DNA of 32,328 nt, taken from the NCBI GenBank assembly GCA_964344235.1, contig CAYFMJ010000009.1, positions 1-32,328 on the forward strand, in the 5' to 3' direction. A model generated the notes under the pieces. It did no database searches. It saw only the letters and a list, made by a program, of their open reading frames with translations, and had not been told where the DNA came from. Positions within the stretch are counted from its first letter, which is position 1; each line of letters starts with the position of its first letter. Source of the stretch: an uncultured Methanosarcinales archaeon. GTDB lineage: Archaea > Nanobdellota > Nanobdellia > Woesearchaeales > GW2011-AR9. Shown in pieces: positions 3 to 12,525 of the stretch. The position numbers and the translations under genes are program-made.

Positions 3-230
3 AGCATCTCAGCAAACATCGCTGAGGGATGTGGAAAATCAACCAAGAAAGATTTCATCCGCTTTTTGCACATAGCTTACGGCAGCGTAAAAGAAGTAGA
101 GAACTACATTATCCTCGCTTCTCGTCTCAACTACTTGAACAGTAATCAAGTTGAGGAAGCGAATTTACGCTGCCAAGAAGTCAGTAAAATGCTTTTCTCG
201 TTCATCCGAGTACTCAAGAACGGGAAATAA
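3..230 (+). CDS. Four-helix-bundle protein (23S rRNA IVS-protein / Avd-like fold), 5'-truncated by the window edge
   Basis: Manual translation from nt 3: SISANIAEGCGKSTKKDFIRFLHIAYGSVKEVENYIILASRLNYL...RVLKNGK*. This matches the SIxxNIAEG...F.RFL.IA.GS..E family signature. Not in the ORF track because the start is outside the window. Confidence 0.85.
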   Translation, partial: SISANIAEGCGKSTKKDFIRFLHIAYGSVKEVENYIILASRLNYLNSNQVEEANLRCQEVSKMLFSFIRVLKNGK

Positions 231-4084: not shown

Positions 4085-7000
4085 CTATTTGAATTTTCTC
4101 CCCTTTGAATTCGCCCCTATAACAGAGTTCATTTGACCGCTAAATTGTAAGCGGATAAATTCACCCATGTCTTTTTTAAGGAGCATTGGAATTTCATAAC
4201 GAGCGTAACTATTCCTCTTATCTTTATCAGTCAATACAATATACACTCTGTCTCTATACTTTTTCTTCGCGGCGGCAAACTTCTCATCAGTCCTCCCACG
4301 ATGTTTTTTCAATCCTTTACCTGTCTCAATCTCTAGCACAATTTCCTGTCCAACTTTATTCTTGAACACAATATCGGGTTTCTTCGTTGTATACACAGAA
4401 ACCTCCTCAGTATACTTTTTCAACTCATCAACGATTAATCCAACAAGTAACGTGTGTTCTAATGATTCGTTATGTTTTTGCTTCACGTAATACGTATGCG
4501 GGCCGGATGTTAAGCCGTGTCCTTTCTTCATCACATAGCCATGATTTGCGAGAACATTCACTTGTAACACGGTAAGACCTTTTGCAGGATAGATTAATTG
4601 TGTTAAATCTAAGTTAGCGGATTCTTTCTCTTTGCTGGTATCTTTAGGGGGTTCTTTCTTTTCACTCAGCTTAATCATTTCATCTGGATTCGTGGTGATC
4701 AGCTTATGTTCTTCTGGAGACGCAATTACTTCCAACTCTTGATGTTCATTTTCCAAAATTAGAATGCCATTGCCCAAAGAAGCAGAAACAAGGAAATCTC
4801 TCTCGTTCTGTGATAGATTAAATGTGCGAGCAACGTTTGAAATTACCGCGGGTTTCTGCCTTAATAGAAACGTATACGAAGTATTAGCTAATACTGCATG
4901 CCCTGCTTTTGAACCAACTAAATCAGCAACGTCTTGTGTAATCATTAACAACCCGAGATTATACTTTCGACATGTCTTCACAATTTCAAAGACATATGAT
5001 GATTCTTCCGCTGTTTGCAGCATTGACCACGCTTCATCAATCACCAACAATTTTCTGTTTGAAGACTCCTTCATTTTCATATATACATGATCCAAAACCA
5101 GATACATCACAACCGGTTTTACTTGCTTAGGCATATTACCAATATTAAAGCAGACGAATTTGTTATCAAAATTAATGCGAGTTTGTCGATCCAGAAAACC
5201 AAACACCCCTTTAGAAGTATACATATGTAATCTATTAAGTAATGCCCGATACGTTACCTCTTCCTGCTTAGGAACAGATTTCATCAGTTTTTCAAGCATT
5301 GCATACAAATCACTAAGAATCGGCGGCTCAGAAGCGTCATAGTTATCCCTATCAATCCCTTTGTCTTCATAAGTCATATCAATAGCTCGATCTAAAATGC
5401 TCTTCTGCAGCTCATTTATGTCACCAAACATGATGCCAAACAAATCTATCAAACTAAGGCGTTTCTCTAAGTATTCATGTCCCATCAGATCGAGAGGGTT
5501 AATGATTGTCTTAGAATCTTTAGAGATGGTAATCGTCTCTCCTTTGTATTGCTCTGTAATCGCAAGATATTCTCCTTGCGGATCAATAATAATCACATCG
5601 CATCCATTCATGAATTGCCGTGAAATCAATAGTTTCGTGAAATACGATTTTCCGGATCCAGATGTTGCCAAGATGACACCATTGGCATTCGCCAAATGGA
5701 AAATGTTCTTAATGTATGGAATCTTATTCTTGTTCAATCCTAAGAGGACACCATCAGTGTCAATATCTAAGAAAGGTGATGAAAACGGAAAAAATGCAGA
5801 AAGTCCTTTTGTGTGAATGTTTCTCTTGGCATTAAGTTTGTTCTTCCCTAGCGGCAACATGGATTCATACGCCGCCATCATCTCAAACAATGGCGTTTTA
5901 GATTGAATCATCAAACCATCTAAACCTGCTTTGACTTTTTTCGCAAGCAAATTAACTTCTTGCAGAGATTTACCTTTACACATAATGTATAAGCTAACAT
6001 TGAAGAGCTTCTGCTTTCCCTTCTGCAAATCTTCTAAGACTTTTTTAGTGGACTTAAATTTAATATCTAATGAGGGGTTAATGATTCCTTTCTTCGAATC
6101 TGCATACAAATCAGATTGCTGCTTTTGTAATTCTCTATTAAGTTGAATCATCGTATGCTCGATGGGGAACGGTTCAATATGCACAGAAATATCATATTTC
6201 TCACCAGAAGAAATGATTTTATCTAAGAATCCCATCTCCACAGAGTGGGGGTAACCAGTCACTTGAATGACTTTACAAAAGAGATCATTAACTTTGAAAT
6301 GGTCAGGCATGAATTTGATTTTTTCAGGAGCATAGAGAAAATGTGCTACGTCGTTCGTTTGTTCTTTCTTGAGTTCTTTCTTTTTGTTATGGGCGATATA
6401 GCTGTGAAAGAAAGTTACAGTATCTTCTTTGGTTAGTTTTCGTACTTTTAGTCCTAATTTATCAATACCTTCTTGACAAATCCTAATCTGCATAGATAGC
6501 GTATCTTTCTCAGGAATAATGATGTAAAAATTTCTGTTTTGGATATTGTTCGTTTGAATTGATTGTCGAATAAATTGACAATATGAATCTAAAAGAGGCT
6601 TATATTGTTCTCCTTGTTTCTTGACTTGTTTGTGTGTATATGTGAAATGTTCTCCTAAGTGAATAGGGTTGCTTGTAATATGAATCTGGATAGGGAAATC
6701 TAAAGAATTAAGAAATTTCTCAAAACTAAGTAAAATTGACTCCTGCTCTTCGTTAGTTTTGAGCATGAAATTCATTGGAATGACTTCGAGAATAGCTAAT
6801 TTGTTTTTAGAAAGTTCAATTATATCATCGACTTTTTTCACATCAACGATGCGTTTAAGATCATCACTCAATAATTCCATCTCTTGGTGACGCAGATGAC
6901 CAACCAAACTCTTTGTCTTATGAAGTCCGTCAAAGAACATAAAGAAGCTTGCAGCTGCGATGATGAGTGTTCCGATAGGAATAACTGCTTCAATCGGCAA

Positions 7001-7120
7001 GAATTTGAGCAGAAAGATAATGATGAGTAAAGAAGGCGCTGCTATCGCTAGCTGAAAGAGAGTCAACCTGAAGATGATTCTCTCTTTGTGCTGTAGTGGT
7101 GGTGGGATGTCATATGCCAT
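4085..7120 (-). CDS. virB4: VirB4/TraE-like T4SS ATPase with N-terminal PrgI/VirB3-like membrane region and C-terminal PD-(D/E)xK-like domain
   Basis: N-terminal IIFRLTLFQL plus two TM helices (PrgI-like); FLNSLDFPIQI; LSAFFPFSS; Walker A ATSGSGKS; IIIDPQGEY; Walker B LLVIDEAW; RKYNLGLLMITQ. C-terminal H...PDIV...EIETG. Confidence 0.88.
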   Translation of the reverse strand: MAYDIPPPLQHKERIIFRLTLFQLAIAAPSLLIIIFLLKFLPIEAVIPIGTLIIAAASFFMFFDGLHKTKSLVGHLRHQEMELLSDDLKRIVDVKKVDDIIELSKNKLAILEVIPMNFMLKTNEEQESILLSFEKFLNSLDFPIQIHITSNPIHLGEHFTYTHKQVKKQGEQYKPLLDSYCQFIRQSIQTNNIQNRNFYIIIPEKDTLSMQIRICQEGIDKLGLKVRKLTKEDTVTFFHSYIAHNKKKELKKEQTNDVAHFLYAPEKIKFMPDHFKVNDLFCKVIQVTGYPHSVEMGFLDKIISSGEKYDISVHIEPFPIEHTMIQLNRELQKQQSDLYADSKKGIINPSLDIKFKSTKKVLEDLQKGKQKLFNVSLYIMCKGKSLQEVNLLAKKVKAGLDGLMIQSKTPLFEMMAAYESMLPLGKNKLNAKRNIHTKGLSAFFPFSSPFLDIDTDGVLLGLNKNKIPYIKNIFHLANANGVILATSGSGKSYFTKLLISRQFMNGCDVIIIDPQGEYLAITEQYKGETITISKDSKTIINPLDLMGHEYLEKRLSLIDLFGIMFGDINELQKSILDRAIDMTYEDKGIDRDNYDASEPPILSDLYAMLEKLMKSVPKQEEVTYRALLNRLHMYTSKGVFGFLDRQTRINFDNKFVCFNIGNMPKQVKPVVMYLVLDHVYMKMKESSNRKLLVIDEAWSMLQTAEESSYVFEIVKTCRKYNLGLLMITQDVADLVGSKAGHAVLANTSYTFLLRQKPAVISNVARTFNLSQNERDFLVSASLGNGILILENEHQELEVIASPEEHKLITTNPDEMIKLSEKKEPPKDTSKEKESANLDLTQLIYPAKGLTVLQVNVLANHGYVMKKGHGLTSGPHTYYVKQKHNESLEHTLLVGLIVDELKKYTEEVSVYTTKKPDIVFKNKVGQEIVLEIETGKGLKKHRGRTDEKFAAAKKKYRDRVYIVLTDKDKRNSYARYEIPMLLKKDMGEFIRLQFSGQMNSVIGANSKGRKFK

Positions 7121-7210: not shown

Positions 7211-8074
7211 ATGACATTACAATTTAGCGGAAAAAGTGAAATGGTTATGCCCTACAAAGCATTTCCTCAAGAAGGAACAGGAAGAATGATTGATATTGTT
7301 CCTCAAGCTGTTGCACAGGGCTATGCTCTCGCATCTGTTGCACAAGTTGCAGATCGTCGAATGAATGCGCCAGAAGATGCGCGCCCAGTATGGCGAAATA
7401 ATTACGTTTTTACTGCCGATGCATTTACAAGAGGAACAGAGGGAGATTCTGTTTTTACGTTAGATGAAGAAGCTCTTTTGACACTTACTCCCGAAGTTGC
7501 TGGTTCTCTTATCGCAGGTGCTCTGCCACGCTCTGCAGAAGAATTCGCACAACTGCGTGAAGATGGACTTTATCTTAGTGCAGAACAAACTGCAGAATTA
7601 AACGGAAAAGGATGGGCATATAGTGGTGGTGTCTGGAAACCAGAGGCGCCTGTTGTTGCAGAGGTTACCGATTTCGTACTACGAGGAATGAGTGAAGCCG
7701 ATCGGATTCAATACCTAAATGGAGTTCGAGATGATTCTAAATCAAATAGAGTAATGAGGTTCTACCATGGTGGTTCAAATGATGACACAGTTCTAATGCG
7801 GTCTGTGGTTGTTGATGGAACTAGGTACGATTCCATTGTTGATGGTGATAGCTATCTCTATAGCAATAATGCCCGTCTCGTCGGGGTAGCGCCGGAGGCG
7901 CCTGTTGCGCGCGAAAAATTAGCTGCGACAGATTTGGAGGGAACACTTCAAACCGCTGATGTTGGCTCAGTACTTGAGGATGCTTCTCGGCTAAATGATT
8001 TCGCACCAAACCAAGTAACATTATTGAGAAACGTTCTTGAGGAAGGTGGTTACCAGATTGTTAAACCCAAGTAA
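7211..8074 (+). CDS. DGR target (variable) protein, 287 aa; CLec-like fold inferred
   Basis: Contains VR in frame (RSVVVDGTRYDSIVDGDSYLYSNNARLVGV), with GAAGGTGA ribosome site at ~7196-7203. No signal peptide or TM helix visible. Confidence 0.92.
   Translation: MTLQFSGKSEMVMPYKAFPQEGTGRMIDIVPQAVAQGYALASVAQVADRRMNAPEDARPVWRNNYVFTADAFTRGTEGDSVFTLDEEALLTLTPEVAGSLIAGALPRSAEEFAQLREDGLYLSAEQTAELNGKGWAYSGGVWKPEAPVVAEVTDFVLRGMSEADRIQYLNGVRDDSKSNRVMRFYHGGSNDDTVLMRSVVVDGTRYDSIVDGDSYLYSNNARLVGVAPEAPVAREKLAATDLEGTLQTADVGSVLEDASRLNDFAPNQVTLLRNVLEEGGYQIVKPK
7798..7888 (+). repeat. DGR variable region (VR)
   Basis: 91-nt ungapped alignment to 8281-8371 has 16 mismatches: 11 A>G, 4 A>T, 0 A>C, and one non-A mismatch (T>G, AAT>AGG). 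Confidence 0.96.
7889..7901 (+). promoter_or_regulatory. IMH-associated hairpin GCGCC-GGA-GGCGC
   Basis: Perfect 5-bp GC stem with a GRA triloop starting immediately after VR. It is absent after TR. Such hairpins are established cis-elements for DGR homing. Confidence 0.8.
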
Positions 8075-8280
8075 GGTTTTGTTTTCAGTTACTTTTTTAT
8101 ACTTCTTCTTTTGTTCTTTTCTTTGTCCCAGCTCGCTCAATGAATCTCATTGGGTTGATTGAGAGAGTTGGTCTACACGTCCTTTCGCCATGGCAGCGTT
8201 GCTGTTATAAAATACAACTCCGACTTGATGCTCTGCACTGAAGGGGTGGTGACTTCACAGAGGCGAGAGGGCTACTCTAG

Positions 8281-8371
8281 GCGGTCTGTGGTTGTTAATA
8301 AAACTAATAACAATTCCAATGTTAATGGTAATAACAATCTCAATAACAATAATGCCCGTCTCGTCGGAATA
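8281..8371 (+). ncRNA. DGR template region (TR)
   Basis: GCGGTCTGTGGTTGTT-AAT AAA ACT AAT AAC AAT TCC AAT GTT AAT GGT AAT AAC AAT CTC AAT AAC AAT AAT-GCCCGTCTCGTCGGAATA. It has 13 AAY codons and 33 adenines in the VR frame. Confidence 0.96.
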
Positions 8372-8431
8372 TACCAACTCTTATGGCTGGGACATCTTTT
8401 ATGGAGCATTTTGAAATGAGTTCTTACAAAT

Positions 8432-10156
8432 TTGTCGTTACTGGGGGGGGCACAACCCTTGCAATCACTTTATGGTGATATTTGTTCTTCAGAGAATATT
8501 GAACTTGCCTTCAAGAAAGCGCGGAAAGGGAAAACTCTCAAACCGTATGTCATTGAGTTCGAGGAAGAACTCGAAAGGAATCTAGCTCAACTTCAGACAG
8601 AGCTTAAACTTTTATGCTACAAACCAATACCACTTGAGACATTTATTCTGCGTGATCCCAAGACACGTAAAATTAGCAAATCTGATTTTCGTGATCGTGT
8701 TGTCCATCACGCAATATGTAACGTTATTGAATCGTTCTTTGAGAAAGATTTCATAAATGATTCCTTTGCAAACCGAAAAGGCAAAGGAACATTTAATGCA
8801 CTCAAACGCTTTGAACAGTTTGCACGAAAAGTATCAAAGAACCATTCACAGGAATGTTATGTCTTAAAAGCTGATGTTCGGCATTATTTCGATACCGTTG
8901 ATCATGCTGTTCTTATTAAAATCCTTGAGAGAAAAATCACAGATGAGAAAGTGTTATGGCTCATCAAAGTTATTTTATCGAATCATAGAACTCAAACTGA
9001 TGGCAAAGGTATGCCACTTGGAAATCTGACATCCCAATTTTTTGCGAACGTGTATCTTAACGAGCTGGATCAATTTGTAAAGCATACCTTGAGAGCAAGA
9101 CACTACATTCGCTACGTAGATGACTTTGTAATCTTAGACACATCTCCCAAGTTACTTCTAGAGTACAAAGAGAAGATCAATCAATTCCTTACAACACGGC
9201 TGCTTCTAACACTTCATCCTGATAAATCAAGAGTGCTTCGGTTGTATGATGGCATTGCATTTCTTGGTATGCGAGTATTCCCTCATCATAAACGTATTCA
9301 AAAACGCAATATTCGCCGCTTTACAAAGAAGTTTACGATTCTTCGAAGAAAGCATCGCGATGGGAAAATTCTTCGTGAGAAAGCACTGGAACACTTTGAG
9401 GGTTGGCTTGCCTACACTTCTCATGCAAATACGTTCAAGTACCGTAAACATCTCGTAAGGATGTTTAATGATTTCTTTCCTCTTGAACTGCCTGTGCCAG
9501 TTCACCATACAAAGAAACATGAAAATTTCGTGAGAAAGGGCGAAGAATCTTCACTGCAATTTAGCGTTCAAAAAACACTACAACTCTTCAAACAAGAAAA
9601 ATCCATTCGGGAGATTTCAAGAATTCGAGCTGTTAAAGAGAGCACAGTCTGGGATCACCTTTCGAATTTGATTGAATTCAATCAACTTTCTGTATGGAAG
9701 GTTCTTGGTAAGGAAAAAGCAAAGTTGATTCTCTCCAAAATAAGTTCTGAAAATGATTCATTAAAAATAATTAAAAGCAGAATCTCAAATAAGGATATTA
9801 CATATGATGAAATTCAATGCGCTCTGGCGTATGTTAAGAGTAAAAATAGAGCAAAGCACATTCATCACCACATTAAGTGGTATAAACAAGTTCATTGCTT
9901 GAGAAAATGCTTCTTCAACAAAGCTCAACGAAGAGAGTGTGCGAAGAAGTTTGATTTGCTTCAATCAAATCAACCAGACTTGAACTTGAAGCGAGACGAT
10001 TTTATTGATTTATTTAACAATCATCTCACAATTTGTGTTCTTCCTGATAAGGAAAAGAGAGGGTATATCTCATGGGAGCAATTTAGGAAAATAAAAGCTC
10101 TTGTAGTGAAGAAAATAAGAGGAAGCGTTACCTTCCCCACCAGTACCAAGCCCTAA
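8432..10156 (+). CDS. DGR reverse transcriptase with C-terminal HTH_40-like domain and Cys/His-containing tail
   Basis: LY..I.S.ENI..AF.KARKGK; PK.R.I....FRDRVVHHA; SFANRKGKGT; LKADVRHYFDTVDH; GMPLGNLTSQFFANVYL; YVDD at 9113-9124; FLG. Start uncertain (TTG 8432, TTG 8459, or an upstream ATG out of frame across the G8 run). Confidence 0.95.
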   Translation: MSLLGGAQPLQSLYGDICSSENIELAFKKARKGKTLKPYVIEFEEELERNLAQLQTELKLLCYKPIPLETFILRDPKTRKISKSDFRDRVVHHAICNVIESFFEKDFINDSFANRKGKGTFNALKRFEQFARKVSKNHSQECYVLKADVRHYFDTVDHAVLIKILERKITDEKVLWLIKVILSNHRTQTDGKGMPLGNLTSQFFANVYLNELDQFVKHTLRARHYIRYVDDFVILDTSPKLLLEYKEKINQFLTTRLLLTLHPDKSRVLRLYDGIAFLGMRVFPHHKRIQKRNIRRFTKKFTILRRKHRDGKILREKALEHFEGWLAYTSHANTFKYRKHLVRMFNDFFPLELPVPVHHTKKHENFVRKGEESSLQFSVQKTLQLFKQEKSIREISRIRAVKESTVWDHLSNLIEFNQLSVWKVLGKEKAKLILSKISSENDSLKIIKSRISNKDITYDEIQCALAYVKSKNRAKHIHHHIKWYKQVHCLRKCFFNKAQRRECAKKFDLLQSNQPDLNLKRDDFIDLFNNHLTICVLPDKEKRGYISWEQFRKIKALVVKKIRGSVTFPTSTKP

Positions 10157-10174: not shown

Positions 10175-12202
10175 CTACAATAAAGCAGCAATATACTTAG
10201 CTGCTCGTCCGATGTCATCTTTCAATGATGTGTTTACTGCTCTTTTGATTGCAAATTTTGTCACTAACCACAATGTGTAATTGACAATCATAAAACAGGC
10301 AATCACGATGAACGTTTTCATGTTGGAAAACGTTTCCATTTCTAACAATTTGGAACAAGCTAGAATTATGAGTAAATCAAAAAATGTAATGAACATCATT
10401 AACAGATGTAAATTCATAATGAAGCGACCATACGGTTTTAATGGTGGTACGTAAAAGCAGAAGATGCCAATAGGAAAGAATATGACGCCCAAGCAAATGA
10501 CAATATACCTAAACAATAAGAAGAATATAGTTCCGAGCAATGTAAACACATAAATCATGCTCGTAAGAATCCACATCCCTACATTCAAGATATTATCTGC
10601 AGGTAACAGAAAGAATGTTGGGTCAATCATGCCAACTATCACGGAACTCATATTCACACTAATATCTAACAGTGAATCGTAAATATAATATGATCCATTA
10701 ATCAAGATAATCATTAGAATAGTATCTTTCAGTAATTCTTTTGCATGTGCCCTCTTAATAGGATCAACATTTGACAATAATAATGTATACCCAGCATAGA
10801 TGAAAAAGAAAATGTAGAAGAAACTGAGGATATACGTTATGATTGACCACACTCCTTTAAACAGATGAATAGCAACGTCTGCAAATAATAATTTGTATGC
10901 GATTGCTAATAATGGAGCAATTGGAGCGTTGAATAATAAAAGTAAAAAGTCTTGCAATGTATCTTGCACGCAACTGCCTAAATTTGTGATTGAACACTCT
11001 TTCTCTTCTGCTATCGCTGTTGGGAGAAGTAATAATAAAAGTAGGATTGGTAAGATTATTTTCTTGGCTTGAGATTTGAGAAGTTTGTAAATGATGTAAC
11101 ATACTCCAAGAAAGATAAGAATATACCACAACAAGTTAAGATTAACATCTCTTTTCTCTATTGTAATTGCTTCGTGCTCTTGTGAAGTATTAACCAAGTT
11201 GCAATCTTCTGAATATTTACTAAAGTGATCTTGAACTGTGACTAAGCAAGTGTTGATATTTTTCAGATAGAATGTATTTCCATCAATGTAAATATTATCA
11301 GCTTTGGTGAGGTCAACTTCTTTTGCTTCTAGAAACGCTATATGCAGTGGTTGTTTTTCAAAGACAACACTATATGTGTAATGTTGTTTTGTTAGGCGAG
11401 AATCCTCAAAGTCCAACGTAAACGTACTATAATTCCCAACAGAAAACTCTCCTTTTGTGGTGTTTGAATATTGATCTATTATTGCAACATCGAAGATTGG
11501 TTTCTGATCATACAGCGTTACATCTCTACTCTCACTTATCGCCAAACTATCATAACCATAGGATGTGTGATGGTACTTGCAGAACCACTTCTTCTTTCCC
11601 CAACTCCATTTCTGTTGCCACCAGTAATGTTTAACCTCGATTTCAACATTGATTGTCAGTTCTGATCTAATCTCTCCAGAAGAATCTATGTTTAATATCT
11701 CTGATGTACCTCTATACTCGTCATTAAAGTAATAATTAACCTCTGCGCTGTTGCTTTGCAGTGAGTACGTTCTTTGACAATCGCCATTACTGTTTTGTGG
11801 ATACGAGTTAGCGTAGTAATTTTGCGGTAGCTGCACATCATAATCATAATCACTATGCACTTGCGTCAGAGCAGTAACAAATAACTCATCGTCAACATAC
11901 ACTGATGGAGATAGCCATGAGAATGAAATCCATGCGTTTTTGATGTATGCAGAACTCTTTGTGTTACTGTTGTATGGTTTAGATGAAACATCAATATTGC
12001 CATTATATTTTTTGATGACGTTATGGTTGGGAGTTGATGATTCTGGATACAGTAATGCTGAGTAAACAGCATCTTTATTCACAACATCAGAAGTTTGAAC
12101 AGAATAACAATAGTCTTGCTCTGAAACCAGAGAACAATCAAAAGAAAGGACTGCTGGGAGTAATAAAACAAACAGAACTCCCAGAAGTATTATTTTTCTC
12201 AT
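10175..12202 (-). CDS. Large membrane protein: secreted N-terminal domain fused to a VirB6/TrbL-like multi-TM domain
   Basis: Start at ATG 12202 (MRKIILLG..., signal peptide; ATGA overlap with the pilin stop). The C-terminal ~280 aa has about six hydrophobic helices, with FFLLFRYIVICLGVIFFPIGIFCFYVP resembling VirB6/TrbL. Confidence 0.72.
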   Translation of the reverse strand: MRKIILLGVLFVLLLPAVLSFDCSLVSEQDYCYSVQTSDVVNKDAVYSALLYPESSTPNHNVIKKYNGNIDVSSKPYNSNTKSSAYIKNAWISFSWLSPSVYVDDELFVTALTQVHSDYDYDVQLPQNYYANSYPQNSNGDCQRTYSLQSNSAEVNYYFNDEYRGTSEILNIDSSGEIRSELTINVEIEVKHYWWQQKWSWGKKKWFCKYHHTSYGYDSLAISESRDVTLYDQKPIFDVAIIDQYSNTTKGEFSVGNYSTFTLDFEDSRLTKQHYTYSVVFEKQPLHIAFLEAKEVDLTKADNIYIDGNTFYLKNINTCLVTVQDHFSKYSEDCNLVNTSQEHEAITIEKRDVNLNLLWYILIFLGVCYIIYKLLKSQAKKIILPILLLLLLLPTAIAEEKECSITNLGSCVQDTLQDFLLLLFNAPIAPLLAIAYKLLFADVAIHLFKGVWSIITYILSFFYIFFFIYAGYTLLLSNVDPIKRAHAKELLKDTILMIILINGSYYIYDSLLDISVNMSSVIVGMIDPTFFLLPADNILNVGMWILTSMIYVFTLLGTIFFLLFRYIVICLGVIFFPIGIFCFYVPPLKPYGRFIMNLHLLMMFITFFDLLIILACSKLLEMETFSNMKTFIVIACFMIVNYTLWLVTKFAIKRAVNTSLKDDIGRAAKYIAALL

Positions 12203-12525
12203 GAGAATATCAGCTTCACAATCAACGGTGCAACCCAAATCACAATTAAACCAATCACAACGCCGCCAATCATATGTTTTGCTCGGTCTTTCTTTGCAGT
12301 CTCAGCGCCAGCGGTGATAAACGATACTCCCGCAAAGACAACCATTAACACGCCAATAATTGTCGCTGCGTATTTTAAGATGTTATATACTTTCATCACT
12401 GGTTCTAAGATTGTGTCTACTTGTTGTTCCTCTTCATCACTTAAACCAGAATCAAAGTCAAGCTCAGCCAATGTTATTGGTACAACCAACAGTGCCAATA
12501 AGAATAAAGGCAGAATCCATTTCAT
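12199..12525 (-). CDS. VirB2/TrbC-like pilin
   Basis: 108 aa with a signal peptide, then IIGVLMVVFAGVSFITAG-AETAKKDRAKHMIGGVVIGLIVIWVAPLIV (two TM helices with a basic loop), the typical T4SS pilin pattern. Confidence 0.82.
   Translation of the reverse strand: MKWILPLFLLALLVVPITLAELDFDSGLSDEEEQQVDTILEPVMKVYNILKYAATIIGVLMVVFAGVSFITAGAETAKKDRAKHMIGGVVIGLIVIWVAPLIVKLIFS

Follow-up and report, generated by a model that had tools for sequence, protein, structure and literature searches.

An Avd-less diversity-generating retroelement of a DPANN archaeon whose reverse transcriptase carries a RecQ-type HTH_40 domain and a conserved cysteine domain

Diversity-generating retroelements (DGRs) that lack the accessory protein Avd are known, and so are unexplained C-terminal extensions of their reverse transcriptases (RTs). 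Architecture A, which comprises a template repeat (TR) and an RT gene but no accessory gene, accounts for 29% of DGRs (Wu et al. 2018, PMC5758913), and nanoarchaeal DGRs were already reported in 2015 (Paul et al. 2015, PMC4372165). Here, we describe a DGR of this kind on contig CAYFMJ010000009.1 of an uncultured archaeon assigned to the Woesearchaeales (assembly GCA_964344235.1). The window, i.e., the stretch of DNA that was analyzed, has a length of 32,328 nucleotides and makes up the whole of contig C9 (32 kb), part of a genome (G000) of 1.19 Mb that is 96% complete. The RT of this DGR is fused to an HTH_40 domain, as found at the C-terminus of RecQ proteins, and to a conserved cysteine domain, a widespread fusion that seems to be undescribed. 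We propose with moderate confidence that the locus represents a DGR of DPANN archaea with two genes and without Avd, that Avd independence extends across its whole clade, and that the fused module is an add-on, likely binding nucleic acids, and not a substitute for Avd.

The locus shares with Architecture A and the nanoarchaeal DGRs (PMC5758913, PMC4372165) the arrangement of target, TR, and RT on one strand, the missing avd gene, the adenine-specific divergence between TR and variable repeat (VR), the paired initiation of mutagenic homing sequences (IMH at the VR, IMH* at the TR), a hairpin 3' of the VR with a trinucleotide loop, as described for nanoarchaeal DGRs (Paul 2015, PMC4372165), and the DPANN host. 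However, the C-terminal RT extensions in these papers are at most ~150 aa long and yielded no motif, and "Avd-like" open reading frames (ORFs) were designated by isoelectric point (pI) and molecular weight alone, whereas the extension presented here spans ~215 aa and consists of HTH_40 and the Cys domain. Furthermore, the spacer upstream of the TR corresponds here to a defined Rfam RNA. The DGR of Bordetella phage BPP-1, which works as a complex of its RT (bRT), Avd, and the DGR RNA, has in common with this locus the (I/L)GxxxSQ and YxDD motifs, an enclosure of the TR that resembles a Stop duplex, and an IMH with a hairpin at the target. While BPP-1 depends on Avd in pentameric form and carries a stem-loop for Avd binding 3' of the TR, the cassette described here lacks Avd, leaves 5 nt between TR and duplex, and has extra domains fused to its RT.

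Accessory proteins with an HRDC domain occur in some DGRs (Wu et al. 2018, PMC5758913). Like the locus described here, these Architecture C systems (e.g., from Treponema denticola) have recruited a helical nucleic-acid-binding domain of the type found in RecQ C-termini, often without Avd. However, HRDC belongs to a different Pfam family and is encoded by a separate gene, whereas HTH_40 is fused to the RT here, and no HRDC match was obtained in RT or target (Pfam, E up to 1). In the searchable literature, the coverage of which does not include Paul et al. 2017, we found no paper linking HTH_40 with DGRs and no description of the fusion; in databases, the fusion proteins are labeled as "helix-turn-helix domain-containing" only.

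The cassette and the module fused to its reverse transcriptase

The cassette is organized on the plus strand in the order target gene with VR, structured RNA, TR, and RT gene (Table 1). TR and VR comprise 87 nt each and differ by 14 mismatches, 13 of which are located at TR adenines, the remaining one being a T>G exchange; no further VRs were found elsewhere in the genome. The RT, which is the only RVT_1 protein encoded in the genome, contains the sequences LGNLTSQ (residues 196-202) and YVDD (residues 228-231). An (I/L)GxxxSQ sequence in motif 4 and a catalytic YxDD constitute the established signature of DGR RTs (Doulatov 2004; Wu 2018). Together with the adenine mismatches, the RVT_1 domain, and the lack of a match to PF05635 (the Avd/23S_rRNA_IVP family) in the cassette, this confirms the DGR without adjacent avd that had been recognized in an earlier note on this DNA. 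The start of the RT is ambiguous: the ORF opens with a TTG at 8432, and another TTG at 8459 comes after a run of eight G (8443-8450) that is a possible ribosome-binding site. The latter may be the start codon, because alignments with homologs begin only at residue ~10-12.

Table 1. Features of the DGR cassette and the PF05635 gene fragment within the window.
Feature	Position	Strand	Basis
PF05635 gene, 3' fragment cut by contig start; judged outside the DGR	3..230	+	PF05635 match 3-197
DGR target gene, 287 aa	7211..8074	+	ORF; contains VR
VR	7798..7884	+	87-nt repeat, 84% identity to TR
IMH-type divergence and GC hairpin 3' of VR	7885..7901	+	sequence reading; recurs in related loci
5' strands of two nested long-range helices (8124-8133, 8164-8172)	8124..8172	+	complementarity, minimum-free-energy fold
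RT-16 structured RNA (RF03019), 5' part of DGR RNA	8128..8280	+	Rfam full-length match
TR, 30 adenines	8281..8367	+	TR/VR repeat comparison
3' strands of long-range helices (8373-8381, 8385-8394)	8373..8394	+	complementarity, minimum-free-energy fold
RT gene, 574 aa if started at TTG 8432, or possibly 565 aa if started at TTG 8459	8432..10156	+	ORF, RVT_1
RVT_1 domain, residues 77-282	8660..9277	+	Pfam E 8e-24
HTH_40 domain, residues 378-465, RecQ C-terminal type	9563..9826	+	Pfam and fold
Conserved core of C-terminal tail domain, residues 483-548	9878..10075	+	invariant columns, AlphaFold2

Between the stop codon of the target (8072-8074) and the start of the TR lie 206 nt, and there is no avd-sized gene between target and RT. 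Both the length of this gap and the missing avd had been reported correctly in the earlier note; however, the gap is not empty, but contains the RT-16 RNA described below. The sole ORF between target and RT (8159-8419, 86 aa) runs across RT-16 and TR, and no conserved counterpart of it occurs in 20 related loci. Likewise, no PF05635 match was found within 7211-10156 or after the RT, the first gene past which encodes a membrane protein of 687 aa on the minus strand, in line with the earlier statement that no avd follows the RT.

The extension of the RT had been described in the same note as a RecQ-type helix-turn-helix (HTH) domain followed by a Cys/His tail, and both parts of this description are well supported. 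HTH_40 (PF14493) matches over its whole model (positions 1-89 of 89) with an E-value of 6.4e-17 and 62.1 bits vs a cut-off of 27, and reaches 67.3 bits in a six-frame search. An AlphaFold2 (AF2) model of residues 351-574, computed from 88 homologs, has a pLDDT (predicted local distance difference test) of 93, and the top fold match of model residues 25-123 is the RecQ C-terminal domain 3IUO (Z 9.3, root-mean-square deviation 3.4, 98 residues aligned; VIA-align search of 48,161 chains). Comparison of HTH_40 with 3IUO by Foldseek resulted in a probability of 0.95 and an E-value of 0.66. The HTH_40 domain has a pI of 9.5, and its N-terminal part can be superposed on LuxR/GerE, AsnC, and sigma-4 HTH units (Z 7-8). 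By its whole-model Pfam match and its best fold match, it thus agrees with the HTH_40 of RecQ proteins, but the latter follows a helicase/RQC module in proteins in which the Cys domain is not seen, whereas the one described here follows the RT thumb and is itself succeeded by the Cys domain. The genome encodes another HTH_40 protein of 413 aa (L003, contig C4, 1468-2709), in which an HNH nuclease, an RQC winged helix, and HTH_40 are combined, corresponding to a RecQ C-terminal module without the helicase; this protein has HTH_40 in its usual context.

The 109 aa after HTH_40 (4 Cys, 6 His, pI 10.1) contain a separate all-helical domain of ~85 aa that is conserved in homologs, has the signature C-x3-C…C/H…C, and was modeled on its own with a pLDDT of 89. 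Its core residues are W483, C489-x3-C493, C503, C535, and W548. Among 17 aligned tails, C489, R491, K492, C493, C535, and W548 do not vary and W483 hardly varies, while C503, which is invariant in the 88 RT homologs, gives way to His in 3 of 5 aligned stand-alone homologs. From these conserved Cys residues, with Cys or His at the third position, we infer a metal site, which is predicted to be probably a Zn site.

The tail could not be matched to a known fold, since the best VIA-align hit had a Z of 4.9 in the same set of chains, Foldseek E-values were above 4, and Pfam returned nothing; a PDB sequence search with the profile of the module yielded nothing under an E-value of 0.1. Weak leads from the ESM Atlas towards DUF7207 or an EF-hand-like domain (143/256 shared features) were not confirmed by Pfam. 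A degenerate Avd was rejected as well, as hhalign against a PF05635-type profile resulted in a probability of 1.5%, there was no Pfam match, and the PF05635-fold entry 2RLD was compared to the tail by Foldseek with an E-value of 9.2 and a probability of 0.01. A profile search of 1.84 billion representatives retrieved 56 proteins with the tail, which are RT fusions, stand-alone HTH_40+tail proteins, and stand-alone tails. The stand-alone HTH_40+tail proteins (among L061-L066 and L067-L070) have ~203 aa, and one of them adjoins hicAB. The genes for stand-alone tails encode 93-131 aa, some with an extra C-terminal CxxC, and are neighbored by Bro-N, AbiEii, TPR, or Schlafen/AlbA_2 genes.

Avd independence is a property of the whole clade

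Homology searches with the RT returned more than 7000 proteins, the best 120 of which (545-613 aa) all combine RVT_1 with HTH_40. Furthermore, 40 RT-HTH_40 loci were identified in GTDB species genomes labeled as Woesearchaeota or Nanoarchaeota, as the relatives of the host are in general, and 37 of these loci encode the tail as well. The extension is therefore conserved, and a read-through artifact, considered in the earlier note, is ruled out. In two metagenome contigs (L071, L072), RT and HTH_40+tail are encoded in different frames with an overlap of ~35 nt, representing a split or frameshifted fusion.

DGR RTs of this type, which were found in 35 of 121 related genomes, come in two lengths, a long form of about 550-607 aa with the module and a short form of about 365-420 aa without it. 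In a tree of the RT core, 11 long and 17 short forms are split by a single branch with a support of 100/100. The short-form loci have the same layout of target, RNA, TR, and RT as well as the same IMH and hairpin, and they harbor adenine-specific TR/VR pairs (e.g., one TR with four VRs in L048), but they lack both the module and Avd. This is exemplified by a genome with the short form only (G094; 96% complete, 4 contigs), which contains neither PF05635 nor a homolog of the tail. All-against-all clustering of ORFs from 21 loci did not reveal a conserved accessory ORF near either RT form, except for the targets. Thus, at the sensitivity of the PF05635 search, the long/short RT family is Avd-less, and Avd independence is a property of the whole clade and not of the fusion, because the sister short clade lacks the module as well as Avd.

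This bears directly on the suggestion of the earlier note that the fused domains replace Avd. In such a scenario, HTH_40 and the Cys domain would act in cis as an Avd substitute that holds the RT on the DGR RNA and allows for processive, adenine-mutagenic cDNA synthesis. The absence of Avd from the cassette and from most host genomes is consistent with this role, as are the basic nature of the module (pI 9.5-10.1), which resembles that of Avd (pI 9.5; Wu et al. 2018, PMC5758913), and the distance of just 5 nt from TR to duplex strand, at a place where other DGRs carry Avd-binding stem-loops. However, the short sister clade does without both module and Avd although its RNA and cassette are the same, the tail is unlike Avd in the profile and fold comparisons given above, and HTH_40+tail as well as the tail alone also exist as stand-alone genes away from any RT. 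We therefore regard a substitution of Avd by the module as unlikely, and the suggestion is not supported in the form in which it was made.

It should be noted that the contig does contain a single PF05635 match (E 6e-22), which is located at its very start, 7 kb upstream of the target. An avd elsewhere had been named in the earlier note as a finding that would contradict its proposal; formally, such a gene exists, but its occurrence is unrelated to the presence of DGRs. It is very unlikely that it represents the Avd of this DGR, acting in trans from a distance of 7 kb. While its membership in the Avd family and the location of PF05635 genes 0.5-7 kb from the DGR RT in three genomes (G000, G025, G063) would agree with such a function, PF05635 is equally frequent in relatives without a DGR RT (32/86) and with one (15/35). 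In total, it was detected in 47 of the 121 genomes, usually as a single gene, which is often 300-1000 nt away from the end of its contig. In 4/4 relatives examined (L073-L076), the 23S rRNA gene is followed on its 3' side by the PF05635 gene at a distance of 136-350 nt, which explains the frequent proximity to contig ends. Moreover, PF05635 was not found anywhere in G021 and G041 (long form) or G094 (short form), despite complete large subunit (LSU) rRNA genes with assembled flanks. When the fusion proteins were scored for avd, as the earlier note had proposed, a PF05635-type gene was present within flanks of up to 10 kb in only 1/40 loci, and 25 of the 37 fusion-bearing genomes were without a detected PF05635 altogether. 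The gene in the window is thus best read as a neighbor of an rRNA operon that is unrelated to the DGR. The sole LSU gene of the assembly is internal to contig C3 (90408-93647), whereas the PF05635 fragment opens C9, which may point to a misassembly or to another rRNA operon. A second, weak PF05635 match of the genome is located on C36, which, like C30 and C32, is a contig of ~1.1-1.4 kb with a GC content of 57-70%, compared to ~39% elsewhere in the genome, and probably a contaminant.

Structured RNA and target-side elements of both RT forms

The RNA element upstream of the TR matches the Rfam family RT-16 over the full model (positions 1-158 of 158) with 73.8 bits vs a gathering score of 50 (E 7e-10), and its 3' end directly abuts the first base of the TR. 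RT-16 reaches at least the gathering score in 18/29 related RT loci, and in 17 of these 18, comprising both RT forms, it is placed 150-310 nt 5' of the RT. The exceptional match (L025; G048:C61, 2688-2863) is located downstream of a short-form RT and on the other strand. In six short-form loci (L020, L023, L024, L026, L028, L030), RT-11 (RF03106) replaces RT-16 just 5' of the TR, with E-values of 1e-9 to 1e-24 that correspond to scores under the high gathering score of this family. Of the 26 related loci with upstream sequence, nearly all have either RT-16 or RT-11 at this site, and the two motifs seem to be versions of a single RNA element of DGRs. In the study of Weinberg et al. 2017 (PMC5737381), the RT-n motifs were left unassigned, except for RT-10, which corresponds to the BPP-1 DGR. 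Like RT-10, RT-16 is a structured RNA within a DGR cassette; however, RT-10 lies between TR and RT, whereas RT-16 is located immediately 5' of the TR in these DPANN DGRs.

The 5' edge of RT-16 has its pairing partners 5-27 nt past the TR. In an outer helix, 8124-8133 pairs with 8385-8394, and in a nested one, 8164-8172 pairs with 8373-8381; both are perfect complements and are present in the minimum-free-energy fold. The outer helix, which resembles the "cPRT Stop duplex" in the DGR RNA of BPP-1, occupies the same place in about 14/18 loci and shows compensatory changes there (e.g., CCCAGC/GCTGGG, CTCAGC/GCTGAG, and CCTCGC/GCGAGG). As a shuffle test revealed that helices of 9-10 bp are frequent by chance when G-U pairs are allowed, the case for the long-range helix is based on the conserved position and the compensatory changes, not on the shuffle test. 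Because of this conservation, the Rfam model of RT-16 may lack the 3' partner of the helix. The nested long-range helices compete with the 5' hairpin of that model. The RNA upstream of the TR would thereby pair with the sequence just downstream and enclose the TR in a scaffold like that of BPP-1, which may position the DGR RNA for cis-primed cDNA synthesis. For this clade, RT and RNA scaffold presumably suffice for cis-primed, adenine-mutagenic cDNA synthesis.

On the side of the target, the end of the VR is separated from the stop codon by about 190 nt (63 codons). The IMH contrast is formed by GTCGG|GGTAG at the VR and GTCGG|AATAT at the IMH* of the TR, and the hairpin GCGCC-GGA-GGCGC with its 3-nt loop (7889-7901) follows just 3' of the VR. 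Among 15 loci of both RT forms that were compared, most again have a contrast of GG|GGTAG vs GG|AATAG together with a GC-rich inverted repeat. This holds for 7/7 long-form loci, while the short-form loci L048 and L051 are without a motif of the GGTAG/AATAG type. For the target protein itself, in which a C-type-lectin or Ig fold harboring the VR at the C-terminus would be expected for a DGR, there was no Pfam match and no PDB sequence match; homologous targets occupy the same position in 5 long-form loci.

Possible roles of the module and significance

With Avd independence assigned to the clade, the module appears as an addition to an RT that works with its RNA scaffold. It would bind nucleic acid and couple the complex of RT and cDNA to DNA, with the hairpin flanking the VR or intermediates of replication or repair as candidate sites. 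This most likely role would be analogous to that of the C-terminal domains of RecQ and of the HRDC accessory proteins of other DGRs. A more specific version, which we put forward tentatively and consider somewhat improbable as a whole, is that the module represents a built-in retrohoming factor for the VR-flanking IMH/hairpin DNA or the RNA scaffold, that the RT is thereby a single-polypeptide, Avd-independent enzyme, and that the Cys domain would constitute a new metal- and nucleic-acid-binding fold.

Another function may be considered in view of the genomic surroundings of the DGR. The cassette sits between a gene for a VirB4/TraG-like ATPase (4085-7120) and genes for a membrane protein and pilins resembling those of type IV secretion systems (T4SS; 10175-12525), and such a VirB4/pilin neighborhood was seen in 4-5 of the 40 long-form loci (L037, L041, L044, L083-L085, L097) and in 0/10 short-form loci. 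Accordingly, the module might act as a transcriptional (auto)regulator of the DGR or of neighbors such as the T4SS-like cluster, tied to the level of the RT and without a role in the chemistry of retrohoming. The superposition of the N-terminal part of HTH_40 on HTH units of transcription factors and the Bro-N regulators adjoining stand-alone tail genes are in agreement with a regulator. However, HTH_40 is characteristically a C-terminal domain of helicases and does not represent a repressor family, no palindrome or operator specific to the long form was seen, and only a minority of the long-form loci is located near T4SS-like genes. A regulatory function therefore seems distinctly unlikely to us.

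Several points weigh against an Avd-independent clade with a nucleic-acid-binding add-on. The binding of nucleic acid or metal by the module is a prediction from sequence and models, and no biochemical data on the HTH_40 family were found in the searchable literature. At the 3' flanks of VR and TR, the 15 loci compared showed no long-form-specific cis element as a ligand for the module. Furthermore, the RT-core tree is unrooted, so that gain and loss of the module are both possible, and many of the compared genomes are incomplete metagenome-assembled genomes. A divergent Avd-like protein or another accessory factor that is undetectable by PF05635 could be present in both clades. Finally, the divergence between VR and TR is evidence of past, not present, activity.

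To our knowledge, everything that is known mechanistically about reverse transcription in DGRs is derived from the Avd-dependent BPP-1 system, while about a quarter of DGRs, among them most of the DPANN ones looked at here, are without Avd. The sister clades of RTs, which share the RNA scaffold and the target architecture and differ by the HTH_40/Cys module alone, represent a natural experiment, and the pair of long and short forms provides a concrete route to asking what an Avd-less DGR needs. In addition, two orphan Rfam motifs, RT-16 and RT-11, are given a place, and a small conserved domain without a match among solved structures has been found both with RTs and in the context of mobile elements. 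DGRs that consist of the two components RT and RNA would be attractive for the development of tools for targeted mutagenesis. If the module is a built-in retrohoming factor, the long and short clades would offer a ready natural pair in which minimal diversification systems of RT and RNA could be dissected and engineered.

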